DNA from: a virus
Lineage: Duplodnaviria; Heunggongvirae; Uroviricota; Caudoviricetes
Direction: 5' to 3' (one strand)
IMG/VR virus record: IMGVR_UViG_3300032086_002076
Coordinates: 10,351 to 74,350 of that record
Length of the DNA stretch: 64,000 bases
Part shown: positions 24,449 to 27,977 of the stretch, piece by piece
Position numbering within the stretch: the first letter of the stretch is position 1
Layout: each line of letters opens with the position of its first letter
Program-made: the position numbers and the translations under genes
The notes under the pieces: model-generated
The model's input: the letters and a program-made list of their open reading frames with translations, nothing else
Databases searched by the model: none
What the model was told of the DNA's origin: nothing

Positions 24449-25375
24449 ATGAAAATACATGAGAAAATGTTTGTAGTAAAGAGGGGGAAAGGCGATTTAG
24501 CTTATATGACCTACTATGAAACAAACAAAGCTTTTCTTAAAAGAAAACAAACAGGCTGTAGTTGGGCAAGGGTTGAAATTCAAGATGAAGATGTTAAAGA
24601 TTACTTAATAGAAAATAAACCTATTAGTGGTTTTAAGATAGACGGTTACGCTAGCAGATACAGTACTTCTAATAAATTAATCAGAATAAAAGACCCTAGA
24701 GATTTTGTTGTAGAGATTTCTGTAGAGAATCTTGTAGATTTACTGTCTGTTGTTTCTACAAAAAATGGAGTTATACAAGATAAGTGTGTTTGGGCTGGTA
24801 ATGAATTAGTTAAAGAAGGTTCAGAACGGCACAAACAAGCTGTTAAAGTTTCTGAAAAAGTAGAGTATATTCCTTTTAAAAATGTAGAAGTAGGTAGTTT
24901 AGTAAAATTAGAAGATGGTGATGAGGTAGTTTACTTAGGACTAACGGAGGGAAGTTATAAAATAAAAGATGTAATCTTCTATCTTGAAGGTAAAGGTTAT
25001 TCATATCAAAATTACGTTAAGGATAAAATAATTTTAGAACAGGGTGGTACTTATGATGTGAGTCTTCCTAGAAAACATTATGTTTTAAATGATAAGGATG
25101 GTTTTATAGATATAAAACACAAGACAACTATCGTTGAAATTTTAGAAGAAGATTACAGTATAAAAACTAGAAAAATAAAAGGTATGTTTGGTTGTGGTAT
25201 TGATTTGTATGACTCAACACAGAAGATTAAAAAAGAGTGGTTTGAATATAACTCTCATAGGGAAAAGGATGTCCTAAAATTAAATAACATAGACCCTTTT
25301 AGTAGGCTATATAAAGAGATGTCTTATGACAGAGAATTTCACAATGTACTATTAGGAGATTTTGAATGGCTATAA
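24449..25375 (+). CDS. hypothetical protein (shares a PRDFV motif with the preceding gene product)
   Basis: 308-aa ORF with RBS agaggagg. Confidence 0.5.
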   Translation: MKIHEKMFVVKRGKGDLAYMTYYETNKAFLKRKQTGCSWARVEIQDEDVKDYLIENKPISGFKIDGYASRYSTSNKLIRIKDPRDFVVEISVENLVDLLSVVSTKNGVIQDKCVWAGNELVKEGSERHKQAVKVSEKVEYIPFKNVEVGSLVKLEDGDEVVYLGLTEGSYKIKDVIFYLEGKGYSYQNYVKDKIILEQGGTYDVSLPRKHYVLNDKDGFIDIKHKTTIVEILEEDYSIKTRKIKGMFGCGIDLYDSTQKIKKEWFEYNSHREKDVLKLNNIDPFSRLYKEMSYDREFHNVLLGDFEWL

Positions 25376-26238
25376 AATTGATTGTAAACTCAACTAAAGG
25401 TTTCAGAGGGTATATTTATGATGTAGATATTATTAAATTTCCAGCAGGTGAAATAAATGTTAATATCCTGAAAGGTAACACTATGGTAACCAGCATGTAT
25501 AATTATATTATCTCTGTAGATTACCAAAGCAATGATGACTTATTAGCTATACCTTTTGTTAAAGATGCTGTAGAACAGTTAAATTTAGACAGAGGTGAAA
25601 GCAATGTAAATAGTATTTTAGAAATACCTTACTTACCTTATGCGAGACAAGATAGAGCTTGTAATAGAGGAGAGGCTAAGAGTTTAAAAGTTTTATGTAA
25701 TATGATTAACTCTTGGAACTTTGATAAAGTTGTAGTAGTAGATTGTCACAGTGAAGTAGGTATTAATTTATTAAATAACTGTCAACATATTAGTTTAGAA
25801 AATGTTATAAATAATTTTAATAGTGTATGGTCTTTGGGTTATGACTGTTTAGTCTCTCCTGATGCTGGTGCAGAAAAGAAAGTTAATAAATTAGCTAAGC
25901 ATCTAGGTACAGATGTGATGTACGGTTCAAAAGAAAGAGATTTAGAGACAGGAAGGATATTAAATTTCAATGTAGATACAAGAGGTTTAGTTAATAAAAA
26001 TAAAGTACTAATCGTGGACGATATCTGTGATGGAGGAGGTACTTTTATACCACTAGCAAAAGAACTCTACAAAAAAGGTATAAACAGTGTAGATTTATAT
26101 GTAACACACGGTATATTCTCTAAAGGCTTAGATGAGCTTTCTCAAGTATTTGATAAAATTTACACCACAGATAGCTTAAGTTATCATAAAGAGTATAAAG
26201 ATAAATTAATAGTAAAAAAATTAGGAGGAATTTTATAA
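25366..26238 (+). CDS. ribose-phosphate pyrophosphokinase (Prs)-like enzyme; candidate ADPR-PP synthetase of an NARP1-type module
   Basis: PRTase-type fold motifs YARQDR and VLIVDDICDGGGT; the stop overlaps the start of the Nampt-like gene. Confidence 0.6.
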   Translation: MAIKLIVNSTKGFRGYIYDVDIIKFPAGEINVNILKGNTMVTSMYNYIISVDYQSNDDLLAIPFVKDAVEQLNLDRGESNVNSILEIPYLPYARQDRACNRGEAKSLKVLCNMINSWNFDKVVVVDCHSEVGINLLNNCQHISLENVINNFNSVWSLGYDCLVSPDAGAEKKVNKLAKHLGTDVMYGSKERDLETGRILNFNVDTRGLVNKNKVLIVDDICDGGGTFIPLAKELYKKGINSVDLYVTHGIFSKGLDELSQVFDKIYTTDSLSYHKEYKDKLIVKKLGGIL

Positions 26239-27977
26239 TGTACATTAACCCATTAACACAAAAAGACGGATACAAGGTAGACCACAGAAGACAATACCCT
26301 GAAGGTTCTAATCAAGTCTACACAAACAATACACATCGTTCTGATAAATTAGGTAAGTACCTAAAAGATTATTGGGAAGGTAAAATCACACACTATGGAC
26401 TAAACGCTTTTGTTCAATGGTTCTTAATTGATACATGGAATAATAACTTTTTCAACCTAGATAAAGATACAGTGGTAAGGTCTTATAAAAGAAGAATTGA
26501 TAACTACTTAGGGAAAGACGCAATAACAGTAGAGCACATTGAAGAGCTACATGACTTAGGTTATTTACCAATTGTAATTAAAAGTTTACCAGAAGGTTCA
26601 CAAGTCCCTATTGGTGTACCTACTTTCACAATTACCAATACTTTACCTGAGTTTTTCTGGTTACCTAATTTCTTAGAAACTGCTATTAGTTCAGAAGTTT
26701 GGAAACCTACTGTGATAGCTACAGTAGCTAACCAATATAGAAAACTACTAACTAAGTTTGCAGAAGAAACAGGTACTCCTACTGACTTTGTTGCTATACA
26801 AGGGCATGATTTCTCAGCTAGAGGTATGTCTGGATTACATGATGCAGGTTCTTCAGGTTCTGGACATCTTACATCTTTTGTAGGAACAGATACTATTGCA
26901 TCTATAGATTATGTAGAAAGATATTTACAAGCAAACTCAGATGAAGAGTTAGTCGCTTGTTCAGTACCTGCTACAGAACACTCTGTTATGTGTATGGGTT
27001 CTTATGAAGATGAGTTAGGTACTTTTAAAAGGTTAATCACAGAAGTTTACCCCAAAGGTGTTGTCAGTATTGTAAGCGATACTTGGGATTTTTGGAAGGT
27101 TATCACAGAGTATACTAAAACTCTTAAACAAGAGATTTTAAACAGAGAAGTTAATGAAATAGGTTTAGCTAAAACAGTATTCAGACCAGACAGTGGTGAC
27201 CCTGTTGAAATACTTTGTGGTATTAAAGCTAAAACTGTAAACTATACTGAAGACTTTGAAGAATGGAAAAAGTGGGTAGCAGAAGATATAAATGACACTT
27301 TTTGTAATGAACTAGTTGCAGAAGAACCTCATTTTGGTATGGATGATTTATACTCTTTTAATGGTAAGTATTTTAAAGTAACATATTCACCGGAGTTAAA
27401 TAGACATGATAAAACATACTACTACGTAGATAATTGGAAAGATACTGTAACCTATTGTACTTTTGAAGAGGTAGAAATGACTCCTGAGAAAAAAGGTGCT
27501 GTAGAAAGCTTATGGGATATCTTTGGAGGAACAGTAACAGAAGAAGGTTACAAACTACTTAACGAAAGAGTAGGTTTAATCTACGGAGATGCTATTACTC
27601 TAGAAAGAGCACAAGAAATTCTAGAAAGATTAAAAGAGAAAGGTTTTGCTTCAGGTAATGTAGTGTTTGGTATTGGTTCTTATACTTACCAGTTTAATAC
27701 TAGAGATACTTTTGGTATGGCTCTTAAAGCTACTTATGGGGAAGTTGATGGACAGGGTAGAGAGCTTTTTAAAGACCCTATCACTGACTCAGGAACCAAG
27801 AAATCTGCTAAAGGTTTACTAAAAGTAGATAAAGATGAAAATGGAGATTTTATTCTTGTACAAGGTGTTTCTAAAGAAGAAGAGAAAGAAGGAGAGCTTA
27901 AAGAAATCTTTAGAGATGGTAAGTTATTAATAAAAGAAAAACTATCAGATATCAGACAAAGAGTTTTGGAGGGTTAG
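26238..27977 (+). CDS. nicotinamide phosphoribosyltransferase (Nampt/NadV)-like enzyme; candidate Namat of NARP1
   Basis: 579-aa protein with a Nampt-family look (MYINPLTQKDGYKVDH..., GTDT..., conserved central region); ATGA overlap with the Prs-like gene. Confidence 0.6.
   Translation: MYINPLTQKDGYKVDHRRQYPEGSNQVYTNNTHRSDKLGKYLKDYWEGKITHYGLNAFVQWFLIDTWNNNFFNLDKDTVVRSYKRRIDNYLGKDAITVEHIEELHDLGYLPIVIKSLPEGSQVPIGVPTFTITNTLPEFFWLPNFLETAISSEVWKPTVIATVANQYRKLLTKFAEETGTPTDFVAIQGHDFSARGMSGLHDAGSSGSGHLTSFVGTDTIASIDYVERYLQANSDEELVACSVPATEHSVMCMGSYEDELGTFKRLITEVYPKGVVSIVSDTWDFWKVITEYTKTLKQEILNREVNEIGLAKTVFRPDSGDPVEILCGIKAKTVNYTEDFEEWKKWVAEDINDTFCNELVAEEPHFGMDDLYSFNGKYFKVTYSPELNRHDKTYYYVDNWKDTVTYCTFEEVEMTPEKKGAVESLWDIFGGTVTEEGYKLLNERVGLIYGDAITLERAQEILERLKEKGFASGNVVFGIGSYTYQFNTRDTFGMALKATYGEVDGQGRELFKDPITDSGTKKSAKGLLKVDKDENGDFILVQGVSKEEEKEGELKEIFRDGKLLIKEKLSDIRQRVLEG

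Follow-up and report, generated by a model that had tools for sequence, protein, structure and literature searches.

A divergent phage gene pair that probably encodes the NARP1 pathway of NAD+ reconstitution

We examined a stretch of 64,000 nucleotides (the window) from a virus of the Caudoviricetes, positions 10,351 to 74,350 of IMG/VR record IMGVR_UViG_3300032086_002076. It carries two adjacent genes, one related to phosphoribosyl pyrophosphate (PRPP) synthetase (Prs) and one to nicotinamide phosphoribosyltransferase (Nampt), which an earlier note on this DNA had proposed to be a NARP1 module that rebuilds nicotinamide adenine dinucleotide (NAD+) after its depletion by host defences. Both open reading frames (ORFs) were borne out (Table 1). 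They are intact, full length, and co-directional, and they overlap by 1 nt. The junction reads ...TTTTATAATGTAC, in which the TAA stop and the ATG start have one base in common (TAATG), so it is not the four-base ATGA overlap that had been claimed for the pair; a true ATGA overlap lies two genes downstream. An AGGAGG Shine-Dalgarno sequence is found 8 nt upstream of the start of the second gene. The motifs quoted for the Prs-like protein are present, PYARQDR at residues 91-97 and also VLIVDDICDGGGT. The Prs-like protein matches PHROG 619 (2e-88) and the Pfam families Pribosyltran_N and Pribosyltran, and the Nampt-like protein matches PHROG 448 (6e-193), Pfam NAPRTase (1e-37), and NCBIfam NF006629 (543 bits). 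These sequence matches are far beyond chance, and the family assignments of both proteins are unambiguous. NCBIfam holds no Adps- or Namat-specific model, and its scan returned generic Prs and NAPRTase names only.

A megablast search with the 2.6-kb region as the query gave no near-identical DNA among 50,697 phage records. A 97%-identical relative (L090) was found in the ENA metagenomes, and its synteny is identical to that of the window. Compared with this relative, the Prs-like gene has a ratio of nonsynonymous to synonymous substitution rates (dN/dS) of 0.10 and the Nampt-like gene one of 0.08; thus, purifying selection acts on both. The DNA polymerase of the window is at most 43% identical to that of any isolated phage, the nearest being Aeromonas and Alteromonas myoviruses. 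The source phage is absent from the isolate collection and is a member of an uncultured, low-GC lineage.

In NARP1, the Prs homologue Adps pyrophosphorylates ADP-ribose (ADPR), and the Nampt homologue Namat converts the resulting ADPR-pyrophosphate (ADPR-PP) and nicotinamide to NAD+ (Osterman et al., bioRxiv 10.1101/2024.02.11.579819). The Adps clade is largely phage-specific, 97% of its members adjoin Namat, and NARP1 has been found in 859 of the phages sequenced (4.3%). NARP2 phages, by contrast, have a distinct Nampt clade together with an NMNAT. Since there is no Adps structure and no dedicated Adps model, reference proteins were scored as controls for the Prs-like protein. The references were the proteins of ICP1, PAK_P1, Felixounavirus, and SPbetaL1, and the Straboviridae Nampt of Aes012 and HK6 stood in for KVP40 NadV.

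On TIGR01251, the general Prs model, the window protein scored 128.5 bits against 423 bits for E. coli Prs. The five Adps-type references scored 98-121 bits on this model, with ICP1 NrsA at 98, SPbetaL1 Adps at 106, the PAK_P1 protein at 107, and the Felixounavirus protein at 121 bits. The scores on PHROG 619 were 297 bits for the window protein, 330 for Felixounavirus, 315 for PAK_P1, 287 for ICP1 NrsA, 248 for SPbetaL1 Adps, and 193 for E. coli Prs. The window protein fell below every NCBIfam Prs equivalog cut-off by more than 170 bits, the best specific Prs model being NF002095 with 118 bits against a cut-off of 296. In BLASTP comparisons, it gave 171 bits with PAK_P1, 153 with Felixounavirus, 133 with Acinetobacter PrsA_2, 126 with ICP1 NrsA, 103 with SPbetaL1 Adps, and 76 with E. 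coli Prs. A neighbour-joining tree of 81 sequences placed it nested among the Adps-type proteins, beside Felixounavirus, with SPbetaL1 Adps in another subclade of the ingroup and E. coli Prs on a long branch. Thus, the protein appears to group with the Adps clade, apart from bona fide cellular Prs, and we refer to it below as Adps-like.

E. coli PRPS contacts ribose 5-phosphate (R5P) through D170, D220, D221, T225, and T228 (PMC9232217). Alignment of the Adps-like protein with E. coli Prs and SPbetaL1 Adps showed that R94, D96, R97, H128, D166, K189, R191, D218, D219, and T226 are kept, K189 being aligned with the essential K162 of SPbetaL1 Adps. All of the catalytic, Mg, ATP-phosphate, and ribose contacts are retained except the equivalent of T225, which is Gly223 in the ribose-phosphate binding loop. 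The loss of R5P-binding residues, for which the earlier note had proposed a check, is therefore found at one position, while the equivalents of D170, D220, D221, and T228 are all kept. The protein differs from a bona fide Prs both in missing the equivalog cut-offs and in this incomplete R5P site. It had also been suggested that retention of all R5P- and PRPP-binding residues would refute the assignment. This is not a suitable test, because validated Adps enzymes keep nearly all of these residues, and a genuine Adps would be wrongly rejected by it. The T225 position is occupied by Gly in 70 of the 81 Adps-type sequences (the window protein included), by Tyr in 7, by Arg in 2, and by Phe and Ala in 1 each; without the window protein, the count for Gly is 69 of 80, and Thr does not occur. 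The T225 replacement is a signature derived in the present analysis rather than an established criterion. It may open the 5-phosphate pocket for the ADP moiety, it hints indirectly at an enzyme that acts on ADPR and not on R5P, and it is a possible simple marker for annotation pipelines, which now name Adps genes 'ribose-phosphate pyrophosphokinase'.

The closest sequence in the PDB to the Nampt-like protein, by phmmer, is Namat of SPbetaL1 (9W5X/9W5W; 1.6e-146, 492 bits), followed by NadV of H. ducreyi (HdNadV; 9KE8) with 413 bits and mammalian NAMPT with about 209 bits. BLASTP comparison with the NARP2-type Nampt of Aes012 and HK6 gave 103-121 bits only. An AlphaFold2 model built from 120 homologues has a predicted local distance difference test score (pLDDT) of 94.7, and the top Foldseek matches of this model are again 9W5X and 9W5W, with TM-scores of 0.94-0.95 (target-normalised) and the same ranking as by sequence. 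The comparison with models and structures that had been proposed as a check gives an Adps-like score for the first protein and Namat as the closest solved structure to the second. The core residues D10, Y12, F192, R195, D218, A245, H248, R316, D318, G450, and D451 are identical to those of SPbetaL1 Namat (D13, Y15, F189, R192, D215, A242, the catalytic His, R306, D308, and G360-D361). The residues of Namat that contact the ligand NAD+ and those that are catalytic are all conserved, R40 being changed to Lys, F392 to Tyr, and Y396 to Phe.

What distinguishes Namat from other enzymes of the Nampt fold? The crystal structures of SPbetaL1 Namat, 9W5X and 9W5W, revealed a 'selectivity clamp' in two parts, a loop that varies (SCL) and a helix that is conserved (SCH) (PMC12774641). 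The SCH has the consensus GSX-phi-X-phi-X-phi-TRD in which positions 3 and 7 are aromatic, and double mutants of the SPbetaL1 enzyme, changed at positions 3 and 7 together or at one of them with R40, have reduced ADPR-PP-dependent NAD+ synthesis but keep NMN (nicotinamide mononucleotide) synthesis (PMC12774641). The window protein has the motif GSYTYQFNTRD, with Y482 and F486 as the predicted adenine-stacking residues. The equivalent is GSFTYQYNTRD in the validated Namat of SPbetaL1 and GSYTYQYMTRD in the Namat of Felixounavirus, the genus of Bas63. By contrast, the NARP2-type Nampt of Straboviridae phages Aes012 and HK6 have GGGLLQMVNRD and GGGLLQEVTRD, bacterial HdNadV has GAQTYQRNTRD, and human NAMPT has GSGGGLLQKLTRD. 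The aromatic residues of the clamp are missing from the NARP2-type Nampt and from HdNadV. Since HdNadV lacks them, even a bacterial NadV that is fairly close can be told apart by the motif. In the SCL, the third position is taken by Arg, Lys, or Tyr, and with Lys or Tyr there the stacking is performed by the fourth residue (PMC12774641). The third position of the window protein is Lys37, which is a permitted residue and the same as in the Felixounavirus protein. The loop itself is long (SDKLGKYLKDYWEG), with a Tyr and a Trp further along.

The Namat-like protein is of the 'long' subtype, with an 88-residue insertion between the RPDSGDP strand and the KGAVE helix. This insertion is missing in the SPbetaL1, ICP1, and Acinetobacter Namat and is found in those of Felixounavirus and PAK_P1. 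It recurs in 76 of the 120 database homologues closest to the window protein, where the motif NRHDKxYYYxD is conserved. In the whole-protein model it is confidently folded as an alpha/beta mini-domain, with a helix at residues 340-358 and strands at 368-412. A search for related folds gave no convincing match for the inserted domain. The domain is not discussed in the Namat structure paper (PMC12774641). Most of the closest metagenomic Namat homologues bear this uncharacterised domain.

The pairing of the genes is also conserved. An Adps-like ORF adjoins the Namat homologue (41-64% identity) in 76 of the 80 IMG/VR loci compared, in agreement with the published 97% association of Adps with Namat. 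The gene integrity, the family and sub-family signatures, the synteny, and the purifying selection described above support the view that the pair encodes the NARP1 NAD+ reconstitution pathway, which we consider highly probable from the sequences and the structural model. The activities of both enzymes, their substrate preference, and an anti-defence phenotype would follow from this assignment. The claim that the pair is of the NARP1 rather than the NARP2 type gains support from the clamp motif, from Namat as the closest structure, from the scores and clustering of the Adps-like protein, from the pairing itself, and from the search for an NMNAT or Nudix gene. Among the 64 ORFs of at least 90 residues in the 64-kb window, no Pfam match to NMNAT (CTP_transf_like) or NUDIX was found, and the two lists of families behind this negative, each of fewer than 25 entries, were complete.

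The proposed pathway would begin with the Adps-like enzyme, with K189 as a catalytic residue, transferring pyrophosphate from ATP to the free ribose C1'' of ADPR to give ADPR-PP. The Namat-like enzyme would be a Nampt-fold dimer with the adenine-stacking Y482 and F486 and the loop containing K37 at the entrance of the active site. In this enzyme, nicotinamide would displace the pyrophosphate of ADPR-PP, giving NAD+ directly. The substrates would be exactly what NADase effectors of the SIR2, TIR, and SEFIR types produce, so that the module would permit replication in hosts with NAD+-depleting defences. The defences countered would include type I Thoeris, DSR1/2, SIR2-HerA/Nezha, SEFIR, Kongming, and SPARSA.

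Four points weigh against this assignment. The fourth position of the SCL is Leu38, which is not aromatic, whereas Felixounavirus has Trp there; with Lys followed by Leu, one of the three adenine-stacking contacts cannot be confirmed from the sequence. Furthermore, Namat enzymes also produce NMN from PRPP in vitro, so their chemistry is not exclusive. The Adps tree is a distance tree with a single bona fide Prs as the outgroup. Finally, the search for NMNAT and Nudix genes spans 64 kb, which is part of the genome, and an NMNAT may be encoded elsewhere.

The macro-domain gene that had been noted near the pair is also real; it lies upstream, and it bears on an extended form of the pathway. NARP1-AP has the arrangement Adps-Adpp-Namat and is known from Vibrio phage Gary and PAK_P1-like Pseudomonas phages; it has been operationally defined by a macro gene at most two genes away from Adps or Namat (bioRxiv 10.64898/2026.01.28.702374). 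The best PDB match of the window's macro protein is the yeast ADPR-1''-phosphate phosphatase Poa1p (6LFU, 1.2e-7). It shares 31% identity (E = 2e-17) with the validated Adpp of phage Gary and 32% with the macro protein of PAK_P1, and so resembles the NARP1-AP proteins. It is also 34-36% identical to macro genes that stand between Adps and Namat in four relatives (L010, L012, L028, and L092). In these relatives, which are the nearest with a long Namat, the gene lies within the pair, whereas in the window it is six genes (3.6 kb) upstream of the Adps-like gene, outside the two-gene criterion. This distance and the two-gene criterion argue against a part in NARP1, as do the terminator-like hairpin and the consensus promoter that intervene before the pair (Table 1) and put the gene in a different predicted transcription unit. 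A further point against it is that the protein is closer (about 43%) to macro proteins of T4-like phages, in which the family is abundant. The gene is thus a plausible Adpp, and the chances that the phage has NARP1-AP capability against aRES-type defence seem to us evenly balanced. The macro protein may then channel ADPR-1''-phosphate, the product of aRES-type defence, into the pathway. Because the gene would be in a distant upstream unit, it would be missed by association screens limited to two genes on either side. Adpp-like macro genes can stand several genes away from the core pair, and NARP1-AP may be under-counted. It is also conceivable, though we regard it as unlikely, that the system is an extended and physically split NARP1-AP, with a separate upstream unit for the macro phosphatase, in which the 88-residue domain of the Namat-like protein has a function of its own, such as regulation, oligomerisation, or capture of Adps or substrate.

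It is possible to accept the NARP1 chemistry and to see its main role as metabolic housekeeping, in which the ADPR from ordinary NAD+ turnover is recycled for the replication enzymes of the phage. The pair is found among genes for a deoxynucleoside monophosphate (dNMP) kinase, primase-helicase, DNA polymerase, ribonucleotide reductase, and thymidylate synthase, with no obvious anti-defence island, and bacterial homologues are under the control of the ADPR sensor NrtR in normal NAD homeostasis (PMC2330246). However, NARP1 has allowed escape from NAD+-depleting defence in every phage tested (Bas63, FADO, the SPbetaL1 genes in SBSphiJ, and ICP1), and in the published phages ADPR-PP was detected only with an active defence system. 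Housekeeping as the main role is therefore improbable.

We consider it very improbable that the pair performs conventional nicotinamide salvage, in which a true PRPP synthetase and a true Nampt would make NMN, to be converted to NAD+ by host NadR or NadM or by an NMNAT encoded outside the window, as in NARP2 or as long supposed for cellular prs-nadV operons. The generic Prs and NAPRTase/Nampt models do match the two proteins, the cellular operons have long been annotated in this way (PMC2330246), Namat can form NMN in vitro, and the window is only part of the genome. However, a true PRPP synthetase would not be expected to fall below all of the Prs equivalog cut-offs (on TIGR01251 it has 128 bits, where E. 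coli Prs reaches 423) or to lack the T225 phosphate contact. Nor does a conventional Nampt explain the Namat clamp motif, which is absent from the NARP2-type Nampt and HdNadV. Furthermore, 94% of the phages with a KVP40-type Nampt also encode Nmnat, no phage has been found to encode both NARP1 and NARP2, and the 64-kb window yielded no NMNAT or Nudix gene. That one or both genes are decaying or inactive copies is exceedingly improbable, since the 88-residue insertion is all that might suggest it, with no positive evidence, and the ORFs are full length with all catalytic residues kept, dN/dS is 0.08-0.10, and the insertion is confidently folded in the model, is present in most of the closest homologues, and is shared with the Namat of Felixounavirus, the genus to which Bas63, with a Namat functional in vivo, belongs.

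Table 1. Positions of the gene pair, its motifs, and the surrounding features in the window.
Feature	Position	Strand	Remarks
Poa1p/Adpp-like macro-domain gene (151 aa)	21334-21789	+	candidate ADPR-1''-phosphate phosphatase; Pfam Macro 5.9e-5
Terminator-like hairpin	22589-22620	+	consensus match only
sigma-70 consensus promoter	22636-22664	+	TTGACA-17-TATAAT, perfect; consensus match only
308-aa ORF	24449-25375	+	10-nt overlap with the Adps-like start; PHROG 6266 (3e-27, unknown function)
Adps-like gene (Prs family, 290 aa)	25366-26238	+	ADPR-pyrophosphate synthetase candidate
Ribose-phosphate binding loop, DDICDGGGT	26017-26043	+	Gly223 replaces Thr225 of E. coli Prs; translation confirmed
Namat-like gene (Nampt family, 579 aa)	26238-27977	+	nicotinamide ADPR-transferase candidate, 'long' subtype
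88-aa insertion (aa 330-417)	27225-27488	+	folded mini-domain in the model
SCH motif (aa 480-490)	27675-27707	+	predicted adenine-stacking Y482, F486; translation confirmed
82-aa ORF	27978-28226	+	directly after the Namat stop (TAGATG); ATGA overlap with the dNMP kinase gene at 28223-28226
dNMP kinase gene (257 aa)	28223-28996	+	PF21448 DNMK 7e-23; PHROG 139

The pair sits in a tightly packed string of early and replication genes. No terminator-like site was found on the + strand between the promoter region at 22664 and position 30881, and the next strong promoter-like site is at 30883-30911. A transcription unit is thus predicted from the 22636 promoter with the order WYL_2-like, rIIB-like, 308-aa ORF, Adps, Namat, 82-aa ORF, dNMP kinase, and primase-helicase. 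An Rfam scan of the whole window at gathering thresholds found only a tRNA-Arg(TCT) at 33036-33112 and no NAD+ or other riboswitch near the pair.

Translational coupling links the pair to the 308-aa and 82-aa ORFs, both of which are conserved in the 97% relative. The 308-aa ORF has no Pfam or PDB match, and none of the 80 related loci has it next to NARP1. The 82-aa ORF has no Pfam, PHROG, or PDB match and no homologue in the 80 related viral loci; it is kept in the 97% relative, with a dN/dS of 0.08 that derives from very few substitutions. We considered these ORFs as accessory factors of NARP1 and rejected them, given the absence of Pfam and PDB matches and of homologues beside NARP1 in the 80 loci.

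The dNMP kinase gene that had been noted near the pair is also real, with its start (ATG at 28223) taken from a gene call on a Logan contig. Deoxynucleotide kinases of phages have been reported to trigger Kongming, an NAD+-depleting system that can be countered by NARP1 (PMC12774641). The kinase gene is two genes downstream of Namat, and this linkage is not conserved, being found in 1 of the 80 related loci. The rIIB-like gene upstream of the pair (22973-24418) contains a 12-nt tandem repeat at 23603-23686 that encodes (EDLE)n. This was the only repeat found in a search of the 20-30 kb region, and none was associated with the pair. An rIIB-like ORF is near NARP1 in one related viral locus (L015), and rIIA and rIIB are just downstream of it in Felixounavirus (L002). 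The primase-helicase has 648 residues in the window (28935-30881) and 951 in the 97% relative (12698-15553 of L090), which suggests an insertion in the latter, such as an intein or an extra domain.

Further from the pair, a 283-aa ORF at 34613-35464 has a weak precomputed match to PF26128 (Gad2, anti-Gabija) on related contigs, while our own Pfam scan gave nothing at E<=0.01. Other auxiliary genes encode a HAD_SAK_2 protein of the RNA-repair type (52529-53032), a pyrimidine-dimer glycosylase (46299-46715), a GNAT acetyltransferase (50542-50976), and a DUF1937/DUF4406 protein (39394-39777). One ORF of the window matches the S-adenosylmethionine (SAM)-lyase family (PF23780).

The earlier note had assumed that the two enzymes of cellular salvage are not normally encoded in one operon. 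This is contradicted by the prs-nadV operons of Shewanella, Acinetobacter, Chromobacterium, and Cytophaga, which are under the ADPR-sensing repressor NrtR and in which the role of the extra Prs paralogue was left unexplained when they were described in 2008 (PMC2330246). The closest sequence to the Namat-like protein in the phage collection is an Acinetobacter 'NadV', with 61-64% identity over 84% of the query. The record in question (L003; CAKLQF020000015.1, 'Acinetobacter phage MD-2021a') is a bacterial chromosomal contig with a prsA_2-nadV-Nudix/NrtR-like operon at 7093-10310. The Acinetobacter proteins have the signatures DDICDGGAT, with Gly at the T225 position, and GSFTYNYLTRD, and these Adps and Namat signatures fit the recent report of a bacterial NARP1 in Paenibacillus foliorum (PMC12774641). 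Bacterial prs-nadV operons have historically been annotated as PRPP synthetase and Nampt. From these signatures, the classic NrtR-regulated operons, which have long been puzzling, may be cellular NARP1. The Acinetobacter pair differs from that of the window in its cellular context, in its ADPR-responsive regulator, and in a short Namat without the insertion.

NARP2, known from KVP40 and related Straboviridae, resembles the window system in that NAD+ synthesis from nicotinamide is encoded by the phage and uses an enzyme of the Nampt fold. However, the NARP2-type Nampt of Aes012 and HK6 are only about 29% identical to the window protein and have GGGLLQ in place of the aromatic clamp. Their genes are not beside a Prs-like gene, and the Aes012 locus includes a gene for a cytidyltransferase about 4.5 kb upstream. 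A NARP2 assignment was rejected on this low identity, the absence of GGGLLQ from the window protein, and the lack of an NMNAT or Nudix match in the 64-kb window.

NARP1 is known in Bacillus phage SPbetaL1, E. coli phage Bas63, phage FADO, and Vibrio phage ICP1, where the genes are named NrsA and NrsB (bioRxiv 10.1101/2024.02.11.579819). As in these phages, the Prs-like gene of the window is directly upstream of the Nampt-like gene, and the Adps-type proteins have in common the catalytic Lys and a residue other than Thr in place of T225, the Namat-type proteins the clamp motif and the whole catalytic core. The identity to the Felixounavirus and PAK_P1 proteins is about 39-40% for Adps and 38-46% for Namat, and to those of SPbetaL1 it is 33% for Adps and about 50% for Namat. 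The window Namat differs from the crystallised SPbetaL1 enzyme in being long, with the 88-residue inserted domain, as in Felixounavirus and PAK_P1. It differs from the known NARP1 systems in its longer SCL, with Lys-Leu at positions 3-4, and in its high sequence divergence. NARP1 is an already characterised and widespread counter-defence, and the pair is a further divergent example of this known system rather than a new one; it widens the diversity of NARP1 without altering the overall picture.

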